12,873 nt of DNA from a virus (lineage: Duplodnaviria; Heunggongvirae; Uroviricota; Caudoviricetes), in IMG/VR virus record IMGVR_UViG_2909309443_000005; one strand, 5' to 3'. Made by a program: the position numbers and the translations under genes. The notes under the pieces were generated by a model that searched no databases, was not told the DNA's origin, and saw only the letters and a list, made by a program, of their open reading frames with translations. This document shows positions 1,641 to 9,902 of this stretch, one piece after another; the first letter of the stretch is position 1; the number at the start of each line of letters is the position of its first letter.

Positions 1641-3875
1641 TTAAGAATCAGCCTGACTCGGGATCAGTTTTTGCCAGATAGCTGAAACGTATTTTGCCTG
1701 GTAACGGGCGTCATCAAGTGCATTATGGCGCTCACCTTCGAATGGAATAGCCGTTCTGGCATCGAAGTCTATGGCTTTCCCCAGCTCAACGATTGTGCGT
1801 ACATCGCGATCGTTGTAGTAACGCCACGGGCAGGGGATCCCCTGCCGTTCGTATGAACGGCGCAAAATCGTGTTGTCGAAGTTGGCTCCATTTCCCCAGA
1901 CATGAACAAAAAATTCACCGGAGTTTTCGTCGATAAATTCCCGCAATTGTAACAGTGCATCATCTAACGGGATTTCATCGGTCATAATGGCAGATTGCGC
2001 TTCGCGTGATTGTTTAAGCCACCATTTAATGGTGTCCCGATCAATGACTCCGCCAGCAGTTTCCAGATCGATAGTCTTACTAAATTCCGGTCCCATATCT
2101 CCGGTTTGCGGATCGAAAAATATTGCACCTATTGAGATAATCGGGGCATCGGGATTTTTTCCCATGGTTTCAAGGTCGATCATCAGATGAATCCCCGCTC
2201 TGCTGGTGGATGTGAGATTATGATGACCGTTTGCCTTAATTAAGGGATCTGACGCCTCGCCAGTTTCACTATCGCTGGCATGATGCTGATTGCCGCCAGT
2301 GTTCTCCTTGTGCTGATGCGCAGTGCCTTCCATTTCCTCCGGATCATTTTCCTGAACTTCAGGCTGATTCTCTCCATCGAATATTTCCTGGTATGTTGCG
2401 TCACCCATCACCGCACCACAATCAGGGCAGTTGCCGCCACCGCTCTGACCGCAGGCGGTGCAGATCTTTTCCGGTTCCTGTTGCACTACTGGTTCAGGTT
2501 GTTTCGTTTCTGGCTCGTTTTGTTGCGTATTTGGGCTGTTTTGTTCCGCTTTCTGGTCGTTCTGTTCCGTTTCTTGCTGGTTCTGGTTCACAGAATCGCG
2601 GGTCTGGATCCCCTTAATCCATTTCGGATCATTCGGGTCGCTAATCCCTTCAACAAATTCACCACGTGATACTGCAAGCAGTTCATCGGCGTCAGGCTGG
2701 CTGATATTGGCTGCCTGCATAATTTTGTTTACTTCGTCAGCGGTAACTTTTACCGGTTCTGGCTGTGCGGTCGTGTCAGATGCACCAGTATTTTGTTGTG
2801 AACCTGAGCATGTACTGTTTTTGCGGGCGAAATATTCTTCTTTCGTGATTTCAGTAGCCCCGGCAGCCAGCGCCTTATCCAGACCAGAAAGTTTATTTGC
2901 GCGACCGTATTTTTCGCCATCCTTGTCGGTGAAGAGGAAGTAGAACGGCCCCTCACGTTCTACAGATGGTTCGACTTCCACTTTGCATTCGGTTTTTTCG
3001 TTGTCTGGAATTGCCGTTTCCACTGCATCAGTTTCTGGTACTGGCGACGAGAGAGTATCAGTTGCGCTCTGATTTGTTCCTTCATCTTCAAACACGCCCT
3101 TTGTAGTCAGGTATTCAGTAATGTATTTGTTCAGTGCCACAGGGTCTTTGTGAATGTCGATCGGACGTTCACGGACAAGGCCAAAAATAGTCTGGCGGTC
3201 GTAGCGAAGGGCATCAGGCTGTTTGCGCATTGATGCCGAGATACGCTTCCAGTCTTCGCGGTCGTTGTCGATAACTTCATTTTTTGCCCAGCGATGGATG
3301 CTGCCGTCAATGTTTCCGGCATCCACATCACCAGGCCAGAGAGCGTAGGCCAGTTCGTCATCCAGTGTTTTCCATGTCTGCTTGTATTCGCGATGAATGG
3401 CAGCAATGACCGGGTTGATTTTTCCTGTTGAATTTTCAGTGTGCTGTTGATTGGCTCTGGCGCGGGCGAGATCAACAACAGACGTGTATTTTCCGGCTTC
3501 CTTGCGTTCACCTTCGCGACGTTTTTTCCAGATGCGCATCTCTGTCTGAATTTCGGGCCATTTGGCACCAGGCTTACATTTATGCTTAACCCACCCGATG
3601 GCATGCAGCTTAAGCTCCGGATACATAGCGTTAACTTCTGGCATTTTCATCAACGCTTCAACGATATGGCCGTCGAATGTTGCCATGTCTTCCTGCAACA
3701 ATTCCTGTGCGCTAATCACCATATCAACAGTGATGTTTTCACATGTGTCGAACTTAACCATGACAGCGTTCTGTACTTCAGGGGCTAGGTTGTCAAAAGT
3801 GACGTTCATCGGATCGGATTCAGTCTCGACCGGGACAAAGGAAGCAGACGCCTCATCCCAGCGGTTTTCCTGCAT
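1641..3875 (-). CDS. Phage early-region exonuclease with C-terminal DEDDh (DnaQ-like) 3'-5' exonuclease domain
   Basis: 744-aa ORF. The C-terminal ~190 aa carry DEDDh motifs (MIDLETMG; HVWGNGANFDNTIL; HNALDDARYQAKY). The middle has a Q/E/P-rich low-complexity linker and a C-x2-C-x7-C-x2-C zinc-ribbon-like motif (CTACGQSGGGNCPDCG). ATG at 3873-3875 with in-frame stops upstream at 3921-3923 and 3942-3944. Confidence 0.8.
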   Translation of the reverse strand: MQENRWDEASASFVPVETESDPMNVTFDNLAPEVQNAVMVKFDTCENITVDMVISAQELLQEDMATFDGHIVEALMKMPEVNAMYPELKLHAIGWVKHKCKPGAKWPEIQTEMRIWKKRREGERKEAGKYTSVVDLARARANQQHTENSTGKINPVIAAIHREYKQTWKTLDDELAYALWPGDVDAGNIDGSIHRWAKNEVIDNDREDWKRISASMRKQPDALRYDRQTIFGLVRERPIDIHKDPVALNKYITEYLTTKGVFEDEGTNQSATDTLSSPVPETDAVETAIPDNEKTECKVEVEPSVEREGPFYFLFTDKDGEKYGRANKLSGLDKALAAGATEITKEEYFARKNSTCSGSQQNTGASDTTAQPEPVKVTADEVNKIMQAANISQPDADELLAVSRGEFVEGISDPNDPKWIKGIQTRDSVNQNQQETEQNDQKAEQNSPNTQQNEPETKQPEPVVQQEPEKICTACGQSGGGNCPDCGAVMGDATYQEIFDGENQPEVQENDPEEMEGTAHQHKENTGGNQHHASDSETGEASDPLIKANGHHNLTSTSRAGIHLMIDLETMGKNPDAPIISIGAIFFDPQTGDMGPEFSKTIDLETAGGVIDRDTIKWWLKQSREAQSAIMTDEIPLDDALLQLREFIDENSGEFFVHVWGNGANFDNTILRRSYERQGIPCPWRYYNDRDVRTIVELGKAIDFDARTAIPFEGERHNALDDARYQAKYVSAIWQKLIPSQADS

Positions 3876-3944
3876 ATATTCAGCATCCCAGGAATCGAGG
3901 GCAGGGCGGGGTATACCGGGTTTATCCTCGCAAACAAGAAATTT

Positions 3945-4103
3945 ATAAGCGCAGTCCTGAGCAGCCGGATAATGTTCCAGGAATTGCCAGTGAAATTTTG
4001 CGCGGGCGCGACGTTCATCACCGGCTTCAATGGCAGTGGCTACAGTGACGGCACCTTCTTCCTTTATTGCCTGTTCGTCCGGAATGGCGGCGCAAATAAA
4101 GAC
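3945..4103 (-). pseudogene. Possible 3'-terminal remnant (53 codons, no start) of an upstream early gene truncated by IS3
   Basis: Minus-strand frame is open from the IS3 left boundary (4103) down to a TAA at 3942-3944 and reads VFICAAIPDEQAIKEEGAVTVATAIEAGDERRARAKFHWQFLEHYPAASGLRL. Protein-like composition but no start codon, and no family recognised. Confidence 0.3.
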
Positions 4104-4159
4104 TGATCTTACCCAGCAATAGTGGACACGCGGCTAAGTGAGTAAACTCTCAGTCAGAG

Positions 4160-4468
4160 GTGACTCACATGACAAAAACAGTATCAACCAGTAAAAAACC
4201 CCGTAAACAGCATTCGCCTGAATTTCGCAGTGAAGCCCTGAAGCTTGCTGAACGCATCGGTGTTACTGCCGCAGCCCGTGAACTCAGCCTGTATGAATCA
4301 CAACTCTACAACTGGCGCAGTAAACAGCAAAATCAGCAGACGTCTTCTGAACGTGAACTGGAGATGTCTACCGAGATTGCACGTCTCAAACGCCAGCTGG
4401 CAGAACGGGATGAAGAGCTGGCTATCCTCCAAAAGGCCGCGACATACTTCGCGAAGCGCCTGAAATGA
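4160..4468 (+). CDS. insE: IS3 OrfA (transposase N-terminal / DNA-binding protein)
   Basis: 102-aa ORF starting [32 protein letters not shown]..., matching IS3 OrfA from memory; helix-turn-helix plus leucine-zipper-like C-terminus. Confidence 0.95.
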
Positions 4469-5331
4469 AGTATGTCTTTATTGAAAAACATCAGGCTGAG
4501 TTCAGCATCAAAGCAATGTGCCGCGTGCTCCGGGTGGCCCGCAGCGGCTGGTATACGTGGTGTCAGCGGCGGACAAGGATAAGCACGCGTCAGCAGTTCC
4601 GCCAACACTGCGACAGCGTTGTCCTCGCGGCTTTTACCCGGTCAAAACAGCGTTACGGTGCCCCACGCCTGACGGATGAACTGCGTGCTCAGGGTTACCC
4701 CTTTAACGTAAAAACCGTGGCGGCAAGCCTGCGCCGTCAGGGACTGAGGGCAAAGGCCTCCCGGAAGTTCAGCCCGGTCAGCTACCGCGCACACGGCCTG
4801 CCTGTGTCAGAAAATCTGTTGGAGCAGGATTTTTACGCCAGTGGCCCGAACCAGAAGTGGGCAGGAGACATCACGTACTTACGTACAGATGAAGGCTGGC
4901 TGTATCTGGCAGTGGTCATTGACCTGTGGTCACGTGCCGTTATTGGCTGGTCAATGTCGCCACGCATGACGGCGCAACTGGCCTGCGATGCCCTGCAGAT
5001 GGCGCTGTGGCGGCGTAAGAGGCCCCGGAACGTTATCGTTCACACGGACCGTGGAGGCCAGTACTGTTCAGCAGATTATCAGGCGCAACTGAAGCGGCAT
5101 AATCTGCGTGGAAGTATGAGCGCAAAAGGTTGCTGCTACGATAATGCCTGCGTGGAAAGCTTCTTTCATTCGCTGAAAGTGGAATGTATCCATGGAGAAC
5201 ACTTTATCAGCCGGGAAATAATGCGGGCAACGGTGTTTAATTATATCGAATGTGATTACAATCGGTGGCGGCGGCACAGTTGGTGTGGCGGCCTCAGTCC
5301 GGAACAATTTGAAAACAAGAACCTCGCTTAG
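4465..5331 (+). CDS. insF: IS3 OrfB (DDE transposase catalytic domain; expressed as OrfAB by -1 frameshift)
   Basis: 288-aa ORF overlapping the orfA stop in the -1 frame; contains DDE/rve-type residues (…WAGDITYL…[10 protein letters not shown]…SFFHSLKVE…). Confidence 0.95.
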
Positions 5332-5361
5332 GCCTGTGTCCATATTACGTGGGTAGGATCA

Positions 5362-5888
5362 TCCACCCTAAAACTATGACCAAGTATGAGATCGTCATCG
5401 TAACTACAATTGCCGTGAATATGTATGATTTGCTCGTCTGGAACGGCATAGATCTGCTGCAAGGTATTTGTATAATTAAATGAAAAATAGATGCTTTCTC
5501 TTGGTATGGGCGGGATGTATTGCTTAGGATTGTAAGCATCGGCTATGTTAATCCCTTTAACCCAATCAGCGAATTGCTCCTTCAAACGAGCTGACAGCAT
5601 TTGTGTGATTTTATTTACTTCATATTGGTAATCGTGATGATAAGCATCGCTCCAATCATCGGTATTGTATGAAGCCAAAAATATCTCACTGTTTTGAAGG
5701 ATAAGCTCATAATCAATTTCACCTAAAGCATTTTCTAACTCATTCCACTCGTCCCCAGCAGGAATGTATTCTTCTATCGCGTCATATAGATCTTGGTCAT
5801 TTTTTTCTACATACGACTTAAAGTGCTTGTATCCTGTTGGTAAGCCATGACGCATGTCAAATCCATTTCCTATTATGTAAAGCCTCAT
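5362..5888 (-). pseudogene. AbiH-like abortive-infection protein, N-terminal ~175 codons, 3'-truncated by IS3
   Basis: Minus-strand ORF from ATG 5888 (SD AAGGGA 6 nt upstream) encodes MRLYIIGNGFDMRHGLPTGYKHFKSY...SFNYTNTLQQIYAVPDEQIIHIHGNC. The N-terminal IIGNGFD..HGL motif and the FNYT...IHIHG motif are typical of the AbiH family as I recall it. The frame runs into the IS3 right end at 5361, and the last 11 codons of the six-frame ORF (5328-5361) are IS3-derived. Confidence 0.6.
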
Positions 5889-6202
5889 TGTTTTTCCCTT
5901 AGTCGAATTGTATAAAAATACTAACATGGCCTGCTCCACGTTGACTACTATCCCCTCCTTTGAGTAATGCCTTCATCAGATGTAACAACATTTGCGAGCT
6001 TCCACAGTTCGCTCAAAGCGGACTAGAAGGTTAGCTTGCGTCGGACTTGGCGTATTTAAAGAAGTGCTGGTGGAGACTGGTTGTTGTGTTCCATTTCTAC
6101 AGAACAAAATCACAGAAACTATACCCAATAGTTATATTGAATCAATGATGAGACAGCCTCATATTTATCAGGACTGGTGTACGTCCAATACAGGAGGTTG
6201 TC

Positions 6203-6292
6203 GTGCTGGTTCTCAAATGTGCGCTAGCTATTGCGGCTGTAATGGCAATTTATTGTCTTGCTGTTGTTCTTACGGATCGCCTTTCTGATTGA
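6203..6292 (+). CDS. Hypothetical 29-aa hydrophobic peptide (GTG start): MLVLKCALAIAAVMAIYCLAVVLTDRLSD
   Basis: Consensus SD AGGAGG (6192-6197) with 5-nt spacer to GTG 6203; the frame is open for 29 codons to TGA 6290-6292. The peptide is one predicted transmembrane helix with a short polar tail. Absent from the ORF track because of the GTG start. Could be a chance ORF. Confidence 0.25.
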   Translation: MLVLKCALAIAAVMAIYCLAVVLTDRLSD

Positions 6293-6299
6293 TTTTATA

Positions 6300-6328
6300 T
6301 TGGCGAGGTGACGTGAGTTAAGTAGAAT
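6300..6328 (+). promoter_or_regulatory. Putative sigma70 promoter for mok/hok mRNA (-35 TTGGCG, 17-bp spacer, -10 TAGAAT)
   Basis: Sequence-based hexamer match about 120 nt upstream of the mok start, consistent with the long structured leader of hok-family mRNAs. Not experimentally anchored. Confidence 0.3.
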
Positions 6329-6369
6329 TGCTGCGGGTGCTTGAGGCTATCTGCCTCAGGCATGAACAC

Positions 6370-6460
6370 CAAAGGCAGATAGAGAAAAGCCCCAGTTAAC
6401 ATTACGCGTCCTGCAAGACGCTTAACATTAATCTGAGGCCAATTTCATGCTAGACACATG
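6370..6460 (-). ncRNA. Putative Sok-type antisense RNA region (approximate, inferred by analogy)
   Basis: In hok/sok loci Sok is transcribed antisense across the mok translation-initiation region. A weak candidate promoter on the minus strand (-35 TTGCCT at 6486-6491, -10 TAACCT at 6463-6468 in plus coordinates) is the only sequence support. Boundaries are guesses. Confidence 0.25.
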
Positions 6461-6659
6461 TAGGTTAGCCTCTTACGTGCCGAAAGGCAAGGAGAAGCAG
6501 GCTATGAAGCAGCAAAAGGCGATGTTAATCGCCCTGATCGTCATCTGTTTAACCGTCATAGTGACGGCACTGGTAACGAGGAAAGACCTCTGCGAGGTAC
6601 GAATCCGAACCGGCCAGACGGAGGTCGCTGTCTTCACAGCTTACGAACCTGAGGAGTAA
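6447..6659 (+). CDS. Mok (modulator of killing) reading frame, in-frame N-terminal extension of Hok
   Basis: ATG 6447 preceded by GAGG. The 70-aa product MLDTCRLASYVPKGKEKQA-MKQQKAM... has the same architecture as chromosomal MokC of K-12, as I recall it. Confidence 0.6.
   Translation: MLDTCRLASYVPKGKEKQAMKQQKAMLIALIVICLTVIVTALVTRKDLCEVRIRTGQTEVAVFTAYEPEE
6504..6659 (+). CDS. hokD: Hok/Gef-family type I toxin (HokD/RelF-like), 51 aa
   Basis: MKQQKAMLIALIVICLTVIVTALVTRKDLCEVRIRTGQTEVAVFTAYEPEE matches my recollection of E. coli HokD (RelF) and is close to HokC/Gef. SD AAGGAG lies 9 nt upstream of ATG 6504. A GC stem-loop (GGCGAGGG...CCCTCGCC, 6667-6688) follows the stop. Confidence 0.9.
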   Translation: MKQQKAMLIALIVICLTVIVTALVTRKDLCEVRIRTGQTEVAVFTAYEPEE

Positions 6660-6728
6660 GAGACCAGGCGAGGGAGAAATCCCTCGCCACCTCTGATGTG
6701 TCAGGCATCCTCAATGCACCCGCACTTA

Positions 6729-6752
6729 ACCCGCTTCGGCGGGTTTATTTTA
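6729..6752 (+). terminator. Intrinsic terminator downstream of hok (CCCGC-TTCG-GCGGG hairpin plus T-rich tail)
   Basis: Stem 6730-6734 / 6739-6743 with a GNRA-like TTCG loop, followed by TTTATTTT at 6744-6751. Confidence 0.6.
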
Positions 6753-7117
6753 TCTGTAAATATTTTTATAAAAATAATGCCCACACACAGCATAAAACAA
6801 AAAGTATCACAGATAAAAAAGGAGCGTAATGTGCAGATTTGTTGTTTTCCATATTTACTCACTTTAACATAATCAATATTGATATGGTTGTTGTTTTGGT
6901 GGTTTCAAACGAGATGTTATGGTGATCTGGTAAAATTGCATAACATTAAAATTTAATTTATCTAATCGCTTTTAATAATAAGCGTTGTGTTTATCCCAAC
7001 AATCTGTTGTTTGACTTTTATTCCATTAATGTAGGGGCTTTACACTGGAACCAGTTTATTTATACTTTATACGCCAGCCTGAACAACTGGCACCTGCTGC
7101 GCCAGCAGAGACAACCG

Positions 7118-7396
7118 ATGGCGCACGATACCAAATTACACAATTCTGATGATTCTGCCGTCTTTGCCAGCAGGTGCGGACGGCGTTTTCATGCATTCAA
7201 ATCGGACTGGTTCCAGCATCCACCATGCACTGAAGAGCAGGCTGAATGGATAATTCAGTGTTACCGCAGGCGCGGATACGAGGTTAAAAAAGCCCTTAGC
7301 CTCGACTACCGTCACTGGATAATCTCAGTCAGATTGCCTTACTCCGAACGCCCACCGCGTCCGTCCCGTACATTCCAGCAACGCCTCTGGAGGTAA
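7118..7396 (+). CDS. rem: Rem-like small prophage protein
   Basis: ORF from ATG 7118 (MAHDTKLHNSDDSAVFASRCGRRFHAFKSDWFQHPPC...), 92 aa, immediately upstream of ydfU as in K-12 Qin. The six-frame ORF begins at TTG 7007 with no supporting SD. Identity rests on synteny and recall. Confidence 0.55.
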   Translation: MAHDTKLHNSDDSAVFASRCGRRFHAFKSDWFQHPPCTEEQAEWIIQCYRRRGYEVKKALSLDYRHWIISVRLPYSERPPRPSRTFQQRLWR

Positions 7397-7397
7397 C

Positions 7398-8447
7398 GTG
7401 CGGGTATTACTTCGACCTGTTCTGGTACCGGAACTCGGGCTGGTGGTCGTTAAGCCGGGCCGTGAATCCATGCCGGTATTCCACAATACCCGGGTACTGG
7501 TGGAGCCGGAACCGAAAAGCATGCGTAATCTGCCGTCCGGGGTCGTTCCTGCCGTTCGCCAGCCGCTGGTGGAAGACAAAACATTGCTGCCGTTTTTCAG
7601 TAACGCACGGGTAATTCGTGCTGCTGGTGGTGCTGGTGCATTGTCTGACTGGCTGTTGCGCCATATTAAATCCTGCCAGTGGCCACACGGCGATTATCAT
7701 CACAGCGAAACCGTTATTCACCGATATGGTACCGGCGCAATGGTGTTGTGCTGGCACTGCGACAACCAGCTGCGTGACCAGACATCCGAATCACTCGAGC
7801 AACTTGCTCATCAAAACCTGTCAGCATGGATGATTGACGTCATCGGTCACGCAATAAGCGGTACGCAGGAGCGTGAATTATCTCTGGCTGAATTATCCTG
7901 GTGGGCGGTCCGCAATCAGCTGGCGGACGCGCTACCGGAAGCGGTATTACGTCGCTCGCTGGGATTACCAGCGGAAAAAATCTGCTCGGTGTACCGCGAA
8001 AGCGACATCGTACCGGGAGAGCAGACCGCCACCAGCATATTGAAACAGCGCACAAAAAATCTTGCACCGTTGCCTCACGCCCACCAGCAACAAAACCCAT
8101 CACAGGAAAAGACGGTGGTAAGCATCACCGTTGATCCAGAGTCTCCGGAATCTTTCATGAAGCTGCCTAAACGTCACCGGTGGGTTAAGGAGAAATACAC
8201 ACGCTGGGTTAAGACACAGCCGTGTGCTTGCTGCGGTATGCCAGCCGACGATCCGCATCATCTGATTGGTCACGGGCAGGGCGGAATGGGAACCAAAGCA
8301 CATGATCTCTTTGTTTTGCCTTTGTGCAGAAAGCATCACGACGAGTTGCATACGGATACCGTGGCATTTGAAGAGAAGTATGGCTCCCAACTGGAGCTGA
8401 TTTTTCGATTTATCGATCGCGCGCTGGCAATTGGTGTGCTGGCCTAA
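7398..8447 (+). CDS. ydfU: YdfU-like DUF968 protein with C-terminal HNH-like Cys/His motif
   Basis: 349-aa ORF with GTG start 4 nt after GGAGG and 1 nt after the rem stop (translational coupling). C-terminus carries CACCG...[10 protein letters not shown]...[11 protein letters not shown]. Matches K-12 YdfU as I recall it. Confidence 0.85.
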
Positions 8448-8464
8448 TTTTGTGGAGTAAGTTG

Positions 8465-8844
8465 ATGCGTGATATTCAGATGGTTCTTGAGCGTTGGGGG
8501 GCATGGGCGGCTAATAATCATGAAGATGTGACCTGGTCGTCCATTGCCGCCGGTTTTAAGGGATTAATTCCTTCAAAAGTAAGATCTCGTCCGCAATGCT
8601 GTGACGATGACGCGATGATCATTTGTGAATGTATGGCTCGCCTGAAAAAAAAAACAACAGCGATTTACATGATTTATTGGTGGACTATTATGTCGGCGGC
8701 ATGACTTTTATGGCGCTTGCACATAAGCATGGGCGATCTGATTGTTGGGTTGGCAGGATGCTCCAGAAAGCTGAGGGCGTAGTGGAGGGCATGCTGATGG
8801 TGTTGGATCTCCGATTGGAGATGGATGCTGATTGTTCGAAATAA
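8465..8844 (+). pseudogene. Late antiterminator Q (small QuuD/DLP12-type), disrupted by frameshift in an A10 homopolymer
   Basis: ATG 8465 (SD GGAG 8453-8456) encodes [22 protein letters not shown]...CECMARLKK up to the A10 run at 8645-8654. The frame then shifts so that a second frame (8653 onward) encodes [63 protein letters not shown]. Joined, the product is about 125 aa, the size of QuuD. With 8 or 11 As the gene would be in frame. Confidence 0.75.
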
Positions 8845-8856
8845 TTAAAGGAAAAG

Positions 8857-8892
8857 TTGCTGTCTGATTTTCATTAGTCTAACATTTTAAAT
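8857..8892 (+). promoter_or_regulatory. Candidate late promoter (PR'-like) / qut region downstream of Q
   Basis: Position is immediately 3' of Q and about 60-100 nt upstream of a strong terminator, as expected for PR'-tR'. Hexamers are weak (TTGCTG ... TAACAT, or TTGGAA ... TATCAT). Positional inference only. Confidence 0.25.
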
Positions 8893-8943
8893 GTTGGAAT
8901 CGCAACGTAGTTATTATCATATAACAGCTTGTTTCCTGATTTA

Positions 8944-8971
8944 GCCAGCCTCCCCAAAGGCTGGTTTTTTT
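8944..8971 (+). terminator. Intrinsic terminator (tR'-like): GCCAGCC-TCCCCAAA-GGCTGG(T) hairpin followed by T7
   Basis: Stem 8944-8950 / 8959-8965 and T-run 8965-8971, read directly from the sequence. Confidence 0.6.
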
Positions 8972-9189
8972 CTAATAAGTATCATTTCGGGTGGGGATTT
9001 TATTGTTTAACCCATAATAGTTCATTGACATTGAATCCCAACTTTTGAGCGGTACGCACATAGTCTGCTTTTACATTATCTGGAATAGTTTGGGTCCTTG
9101 CCAGAATCCATAGGTATTCTCTGTTCGGACCACTGGTGATGCTGCCAACTTACTGATTTAGTGTATGATGGTGTTTTTGAGGTGCTCCA

Positions 9190-9465
9190 GTGGCTTCTGT
9201 TTCTATCAGCTGTCCCTCCTGTTCAGCTACTGACGGGGTGGTGCGTAACGGCAAAAGCACCGCCGGACATCAGCGCTATCTCTGCTCTCACTGCCGTAAA
9301 ACATGGCAACTGCAGTTCACTTACACCGCTTCTCAACCCGGTACGCACCAGAAAATCATTGATATGGCCATGAATGGCGTTGGATGCCGGGCAACTGCCC
9401 GCATTATGGGCGTTGGCCTCAACACGGTTTTACGTCACTTAAAAAACTCAGGCCGCAGTCGGTAA
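9190..9465 (+). CDS. insA: IS1 InsA
   Basis: 91-aa [48 protein letters not shown]..., matching IS1 InsA from memory. Confidence 0.95.
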
Positions 9466-9887
9466 CCTCGCGCATACAACCGGGCAGTGATGTGATTGTC
9501 TGCGCGGAAATGGACGAACAGTGGGGCTACGTCGGTGCTAAATCACGTCAGCGCTGGCTGTTTTACGCGTATGACAGGATACGGAGGACAGTTGTGGCGC
9601 ACGTTTTCGGTGAACGCACTCTGGCCACACTGGCGCGTCTTCTGAGCCTGCTGTCGGCCTTTGAGGTCGTGGTATGGATGACGGATGGCTGGCCGCTGTA
9701 TGAATCCCGCCTGAAGGGAAAGCTGCACGTTATCAGCAAGCGTTACACTCAGCGCATTGAGCGACATAATCTGAATCTGAGACAACATCTGGCAAGGCTG
9801 GGACGGAAGTTACTGTCGTTCTCAAAATCGGTGGAGCTGCATGACAAGGTCATCGGGCATTATCTGAACATAAAACACTATCAGTAA
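9384..9887 (+). CDS. insB: IS1 InsB' frame (transposase InsAB' made by -1 frameshift from insA)
   Basis: 167-aa ORF in the -1 frame relative to insA, overlapping it around the A6C motif. Confidence 0.9.
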
Positions 9888-9902
9888 GTTGGAGTCACTA
9901 CC

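Follow-up and report, generated by a model that had tools for sequence, protein, structure and literature searches.

The stretch of DNA analysed here (the window, 12,873 nucleotides) is almost certainly a piece of chromosome from a lineage of enterotoxigenic E. coli (ETEC), holding a decayed Qin-type lambdoid prophage, inserted in ydfJ beside rspB, in which a deletion of 6.86 kb, its scar occupied precisely by an intact IS3, fused codon 4 of an exonuclease gene to codon 188 of abiH. The whole 12.9-kb window matched ETEC chromosomes with 99.9% identity and 100% coverage, and the matches included E1433, L1_E925, FORC_031, TW10598, and several O6:H16 strains. In the annotated order of strain E1433, rspA and rspB are followed by an integrase, an excisionase, a 3'-5' exonuclease, IS3, and a short 'AbiH family protein'. 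The order continues with hokD, ydfU (DUF968), antiterminator Q, a lipocalin fragment, IS1, and a pinQ fragment, and it ends on the right with ydfK, ynfT, the 3' part of ydfJ, and ydfI. The integrase thus lies beside rspB and the 3' part of ydfJ at the opposite end, with remnants of lambdoid early and late regions between them, which is the layout of a Qin-type prophage.

Qin of E. coli K-12 is inserted in ydfJ and carries dicB, dicF, ydfD, hokD, ydfK, and pinQ. The prophage of the window occupies the same chromosomal site, with rspB on one side and ydfJ' on the other, and its undeleted relatives have ydfA-D, dicB, DicF, hokD/sok, ydfU, ydfK, and pinQ in common with Qin. Unlike Qin, it keeps int, xis, and the gene of an 800-plus-aa 3'-5' exonuclease, and it carried abiH as a cargo gene. 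It also differs from Qin in what it has lost, namely the dicB-immunity-replication block, which went with the IS3 deletion, and another 3.4 kb, lost beside an IS1.

The IS3 element and the deletion at its boundaries

The element between the exonuclease and abiH is a complete IS3 of 1258 bp, which opens with TGATCTTACCC and closes with GGGTAGGATCA (Table 1). Direct alignment of its ends revealed imperfect terminal inverted repeats of ~39 bp with TGATC...GATCA ends. These repeats are too imperfect for the seed of the automated repeat search, and none were reported by that search. The two reading frames, orfA and orfB, overlap, and an A-AAA-G -1 frameshift motif lies at ~4431-4435, just 5' of the overlap, in the slippery string CCAAAAGG at 4429. 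RefSeq annotates the element as a joined CDS with a programmed frameshift. Its length, TG...CA ends, orfA and orfB with a -1 frameshift, and near identity to the reference all place it in the IS3 family. When compared with IS3A of E. coli K-12 MG1655, it was 100% identical across 1255 bp, and its alignment to the second IS3 of strain E1433 had 0 mismatches. IS3A (insE1/insF1; IS3 family, IS3 group) has the same length of 1258 bp, the same inverted repeats, and the same orfA/orfB frameshift motif; it is located between the pseudogenes eaeH' and ykgA', and its annotated left end is 3 bp shorter. The window element is an ordinary, known IS3 in a well-known kind of rearrangement, and no new element type. 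A sequence-only reading made before this analysis had described a complete IS3 with intact terminal repeats, and every coordinate that it gave was correct.

Table 1. Coordinates of features around the IS3 junctions of the window and of the second IS3 in strain E1433 (L002, strain 503829; L007, region of E1433)
Feature	Position	Strand	Basis or remark
3'-5' exonuclease remnant	1641-4103	-	PF16473 Rv2179c-like, 9e-67
Left flank triplet GAC	4101-4103		L002 6362-6364; left deletion end point
IS3, complete	4104-5361	+	1258 bp
IS3 terminal inverted repeats	roughly 4104-4142 and 5323-5361		Repeat alignment
IS3 orfA, 99 aa, helix-turn-helix	4169-4468	+	Pfam PF01527 HTH_Tnp_1
IS3 orfB, 288 aa, DDE/rve catalytic domain	4465-5331	+	rve 5e-28, rve_2, HTH_21
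Right flank triplet TCC	5362-5364		L002 13226-13228; right deletion end point
Truncated abiH	5328-5927	-	188 native codons (5362-5927) plus 11 codons and stop from IS3 (5328-5361)
hokD toxin gene and sok antisense RNA	6335-6659		Intact
sok	6335-6509		Rfam RF01794, 119.9 bits
Second IS3	L007 13083-14340 (E1433 ~1,553,082-1,554,339)		Inverted relative to the window IS3; 136 kb away

Unlike a simple IS3 insertion, the window copy has no 3-bp target duplication, since it lies at a deletion junction. Its flanking triplets are GAC and TCC, a difference to which the sequence-only reading had already drawn attention. A triplet mismatch alone is statistically unremarkable, as random triplets match in only 1/64 of cases. 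The missing duplication is meaningful because two control copies in the same prophage family do carry one: an independent IS3 in strain A19 (L003 7863-9120) is flanked by GTG/GTG, and another in the integrase gene of strain ET565 (L004 7864-9120) is flanked by AGA/AGA. In both strains, the rule invoked earlier, that IS3 makes 3-bp repeats on simple insertion, holds. The duplication is a property of the insertion event and not of the element, and its absence here is explained by the deletion.

The IS3 of A19 lies in the exonuclease gene in the same orientation as the window copy, 65 bp from the left junction (equivalent to window 4036-4038), with a further IS3-family element beside it. Insertions of IS3 may favour the 5' end of the exonuclease gene.

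The reference relative was strain 503829 (L002), whose copy of the prophage encodes the same integrase, is 99.3-99.9% identical in DNA sequence, and lacks the window IS3. Window positions 1746-4104 aligned to 4007-6365 of this relative and 5362-9135 to 13226-16997, each with an identity of >99.4%. The two flanks are therefore collinear in the relative but 6,860 bp apart (6,861 when the ambiguous T is counted: base 4104 is common to IS3 and the relative, leaving the left break ambiguous by 1 bp). The left site of the relative reads AAAGAC/TTTACTCAT, whose minus strand, ATG AGT AAA GTC TTT, is the start of the exonuclease gene, and the right site, GTGACTTT/TCCACCC, is within abiH. The block absent from the window begins with the first three codons of the exonuclease and contains ydfD, dicB, the DicF RNA (Rfam), ydfB, ydfA, both immunity genes (cI-like and cro-like repressors), ydaT, and the two replication-region genes (a 356-aa gene and a DUF977 gene). 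At its far end are a 463-aa orphan gene and the last 114 abiH codons. Since the reading frames of both exonuclease and abiH are completed by these extra 6.86 kb, the difference is a deletion in the window, and an insertion in the relative was rejected on the same ground.

The sequence-only reading had placed IS3 at a deletion or recombination junction and had suggested comparing both flanks with related prophages; the comparison with strain 503829 agrees with this placement and identifies a deletion junction. Its proposal that upstream early genes were lost also stands, but the left junction is not upstream of the exonuclease as it had supposed: it lies inside the frame, after codon 3. Similarly, the 3' part of abiH is indeed lost, but the loss amounts to 38% of the gene (the last 114 of 302 codons) rather than half.

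In the relative, each deletion end point has a copy of the hexamer GACTTT (6362-6367 and 13220-13225), 3 bp off the actual joints. Its presence at both is probably due to chance; it could also reflect target preference or microhomology.

Distribution of the junctions and an IS3-bounded inversion

The survey covered 5,426 complete E. coli genomes. The undisturbed exonuclease-start/ydfD sequence was contiguous in 3,706 of them. A 240-bp segment over the abiH site was found in only 92 genomes and was uninterrupted in 65; 27 genomes held the retained half only, the same number as carried the right IS3 junction, and the lost half of abiH did not occur alone among the matches listed. The junctions of the window, AAATAAAGAC/TGATCTTACC on the left (exonuclease/IS3) and GGTAGGATCA/TCCACCCTAA on the right (IS3/abiH), were present in 26 and 27 genomes, respectively. 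All of these were human ETEC isolates, and the identity of the junctions was 100% in most genomes and 99.6% in three. The carriers include the ETEC lineage references L1 (E925) and L2 (E1649), both O6 and of phylogroup A (lineages assigned from PMC8085198). The simplest reading of this distribution is that the deletion would have been a single event in the common ancestor of L1 and L2, and the two junction sequences provide a stable clonal marker for these lineages. The case that had been named in advance as contradicting a junction, this IS3 between the same neighbours but with a 3-bp duplication, was found in none of the 26 left-junction and 27 right-junction genomes; all carriers show the same junction.

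In TW10598 (record 207,966-211,592), the distance between the two junctions is ~3.4 kb rather than 1.26 kb, and the annotation of this locus includes an IS21-like ISEc62 transposase. The IS3 copy of this strain has probably been struck by another insertion sequence itself.

In the uninverted strain E1433, the second IS3 has a truncated yncG on one side and a truncated ISAs1-type gene (yncI) on the other. It is flanked by TTG and GTA, again with no duplication, and when compared with K-12 it sits at a 4,203-bp deletion of the 3' part of yncG, yncH, rhsE', ydcD, yncO, and the 5' part of yncI. In six genomes, the left and right junctions of the window were 126-138 kb apart and on opposite strands. 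Three more genomes (E66, E1624, and L2_E1649) had one swapped junction only: E66 was without the right junction, and E1624 and E1649 were without the left one. In the inverted arrangement (L005, L006, L008, L009, and L010), exo'-IS3-'yncI is found in one place and yncG'-IS3-abiH' in the other, so that the right flanks are exactly swapped (GAC/GTA and TTG/TCC). Judged from these flanks, the arrangement is the product expected from homologous recombination between inverted IS3 repeats. Inversion by intramolecular replicative transposition was rejected, as the left flank of one copy does not equal the right flank of the other. A flank exchange with the second IS3 was also considered as the cause of the missing duplication and was rejected, as no pairing of GAC, TCC, TTG, and GTA gives one in either arrangement.

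The invertible segment includes dif (28/28 match, E1433 position 1,658,431; L014 14432-14459), which was not in the first 49 kb fetched of the segment and was located in the next block. The window IS3 is thus one arm of a 126-138 kb dif-containing invertible segment and is relevant to comparisons of terminus structure.

The IS1 of the window (9135-9902) is also without a target duplication, with the flanks CGGACCACT and ATTACTTGC, and marks a deletion that, judged against strain 503829, took 3.4 kb (L002 16998-20408) and left the lipocalin and pinQ fragments. In E1624 and L2_E1649, a nested extension has also removed window 6778-9134, with the right IS1 junction unchanged. Such nested deletions are the classic signature of IS1 adjacent deletion. 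The inversion was found on both IS1-deletion backgrounds: 2014EL-1346-6 is window-like, and E1624 and E1649 have the extended deletion. Several uninverted genomes cover 82% of the window only, which suggests that they carry the extended IS1 deletion too. If so, both IS1 states occur among uninverted genomes, and the inversion probably arose more than once or reverted.

In E1433, yneK is split into two parts ~35 kb apart, each beside an IS1 (L013 37051-37950 and L014 24205-24426), and between them the lsr-hipBA-dif block runs opposite to its direction in the K-12 gene order. This arrangement suggests that IS1 has mediated another inversion around the terminus, nested in the IS3-bounded segment.

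Route of the deletion

We lean towards insertion followed by a transposase-made adjacent deletion as the route by which the 6.86 kb was lost. IS3 would first have inserted normally at one of the two sites, making a 3-bp duplication. One end of the element would then have been linked by the transposase to another target on that molecule, at a distance of 6.9 kb, and the interval would have been discarded, leaving IS3 intact with one flank from each site. By this route, the window would show no duplication because its flanks derive from different sites. Three observations favour it. According to PMC8860574, which cites Sekine 1994, IS3 readily makes adjacent deletions of various lengths. In three lines of the long-term evolution experiment, 14 of 14 deletion events of IS150, an IS3-family element, were without duplication, and each was preceded by an insertion at the same position (PMC11708052). 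Furthermore, both of the IS3 copies examined in this genome (2/2) sit at deletions without a duplication, and with both copies at deletions, a route from two copies would need two pairs of close same-orientation insertions.

The IS150 deletions of the Lenski lines (PMC11708052) and the IS3 plasmid deletions (PMC8860574) resemble the window in having an intact IS at the joint, no duplication, flanks that are collinear and non-adjacent in relatives, and a one-sided loss on the kilobase scale. Unlike them, the window event is natural and fixed in a pathogen lineage rather than followed in a time series.

Intermediates were sought with simulated simple-insertion junctions, GGTAGGATCA/GACTTTACTCAT (IS3 right end/exonuclease side) and GTGACTTTTCC/TGATCTTACC (abiH side/IS3 left end). 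Each carried one duplicated triplet, GAC for the exonuclease 5' end/ydfD side and TCC for the abiH 3' part. Neither was found at the deletion sites in the 5,426 complete E. coli genomes, and gapped exact patterns allowing a duplication of 1-8 bp had no match in GTDB representative genomes or JGI metagenomes. Two apparent matches, in A19 and ET565, were independent IS3 insertions elsewhere, each with its own duplication. Thus no genome in the collections searched had a second IS3 at either site, which counts in favour of adjacent deletion; against it, the precursor with a single insertion is as unobserved as the precursor with two. The sequence-only reading had also proposed looking for an IS3 with the complementary flank, and no such copy turned up in any of these three collections. 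None would be expected, because the reciprocal product of the deletion is a circle, which is lost. The absence of precursors is likewise expected if the event was old and unique.

Nested deletions that share one IS end are the classic signature of transposase-made adjacent deletion. No nested IS3-anchored deletions of differing length were found, and both IS3 junctions are common to all 26-27 carriers; it is the neighbouring IS1 that shows this signature. It also counts against adjacent deletion that the IS3 copies of the L1/L2 lineage do undergo homologous recombination, as the inversion indicates.

This recombination brings in the strongest alternative, which we consider credible but less likely. 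Two same-orientation IS3 copies would have been inserted, one at codons 3-4 of the exonuclease with duplicated GAC and one in abiH with duplicated TCC, and RecA-dependent recombination between them would have excised 6.86 kb together with one IS3 as a circle. The remaining IS3 would have its left flank from the first copy and its right flank from the second, a product that fits exactly. Recombination between IS3 copies was the example given in the sequence-only reading, and it stands as far as this fit goes; it is unproven, however, since adjacent deletion gives the same product. The products of the two routes are identical base for base, and sequence alone cannot separate them. The capacity of IS3 copies in this lineage to recombine is evident from the swapped right flanks and the 126-138 kb inversion in 6 genomes, with one swapped junction in 3 more, and other IS3 insertions do occur in this prophage family, one of them (A19) only 65 bp away. 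Recombination between a pair of IS3-type copies has reportedly been proposed for the rbs deletions by IS150 in the long-term evolution experiment. Nevertheless, IS3 would have had to insert twice independently, in the same orientation and within 7 kb, and the other duplication-less IS3 would require another such pair. In addition, the joints that this route calls for, IS3 right end/exonuclease 5' end and abiH 3' part/IS3 left end, were absent from the collections searched.

A one-step event, in which insertion and deletion coincided as IS3 was taken up at a double-strand break or an ongoing deletion, is very improbable. Without a staggered cut, the duplication would never have been made, and no intermediate of any kind was found, although missing intermediates are uninformative for an old, once-only event. 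One-step capture is already a published hypothesis for IS5 and IS481, but all 14 IS150 cases in the same source are explained by insertion and then adjacent deletion (PMC11708052). The GACTTT at both end points could hint at microhomology-guided break repair; however, this microhomology is off the actual joints, TTT is absent from the product, and chance alone would place a shared 6-mer within ~15 bp of two AT-rich sites in ~5% of cases (a rough estimate). If one-step capture were true, this genome would hold two natural examples, the other being the IS3 at the yncG-yncI deletion.

That there was no real rearrangement can be practically dismissed: for an assembly collapse over IS3 copies speaks only the general fact that repeats can mislead assemblers, and it is refuted by the same junctions in 26-27 independent complete assemblies from several laboratories, while a duplication mutated after a normal insertion is refuted by the distance of 6.86 kb between the flanks in relatives, since no point mutation in a triplet could separate them.

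Consequences for the prophage and its truncated genes

The exonuclease remnant has been cut off from its promoter region and ribosome-binding site and has lost the three initial codons (MSK). Its frame extends into IS3 as far as a stop codon 10 codons upstream, and the first in-frame ATG/GTG/TTG of the remnant is at position 3875. A search for a promoter reading from the left end of IS3 into the remnant gave no promoter-like site on the relevant strand, and the region had no more sites than shuffled sequence. The gene thus appears to be deprived of its own start codon, with the early-left promoter region lost. RefSeq gives the exonuclease as an intact 818-aa CDS at 1641-4097 on the minus strand, requiring a non-standard ATT start at 4097. 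This CDS is better treated as a truncated pseudogene remnant.

On the other side of IS3, the abiH product shares a 188-aa prefix with the 302-aa full-length protein and then continues with 11 IS3-encoded residues. It covers positions 1-183 of the 260 positions of PF14253 only, whereas the full-length relative covers 1-258; the window copy therefore falls short of a full-length AbiH profile. PADLOC calls it AbiH. Lacking the C-terminal 38%, the protein is probably inactive. The 199-aa 'AbiH family protein' of RefSeq is the abiH::IS3 fusion and, like the exonuclease CDS, is better treated as a pseudogene remnant.

Judged by gene content, the prophage would have been left without immunity, replication, and host-killing functions (dicB, DicF, and ydfD), and with int, xis, and hokD/sok, the last of which is kept intact just past the truncated abiH. 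One IS3-associated deletion would thus have taken the repressors, the genes silenced by them, the replication genes, and part of a phage-defence gene, leaving a harmless, immobile remnant. Losing the repressors together with the genes that they silence may be a tolerable, and possibly favoured, way to ground a prophage. The finding is already known in kind, as a textbook rearrangement by an insertion sequence; the window offers a clean and well-controlled natural example of insertion sequences dismantling a prophage, and its general significance is small.

In undeleted relatives, the 463-aa gene of the absent block (L002 11402-12793 in strain 503829, minus strand) lies directly downstream of abiH on the same strand. 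The gene had no Pfam or PADLOC match. Given its position, it could be the partner of AbiH in a two-gene defence module.
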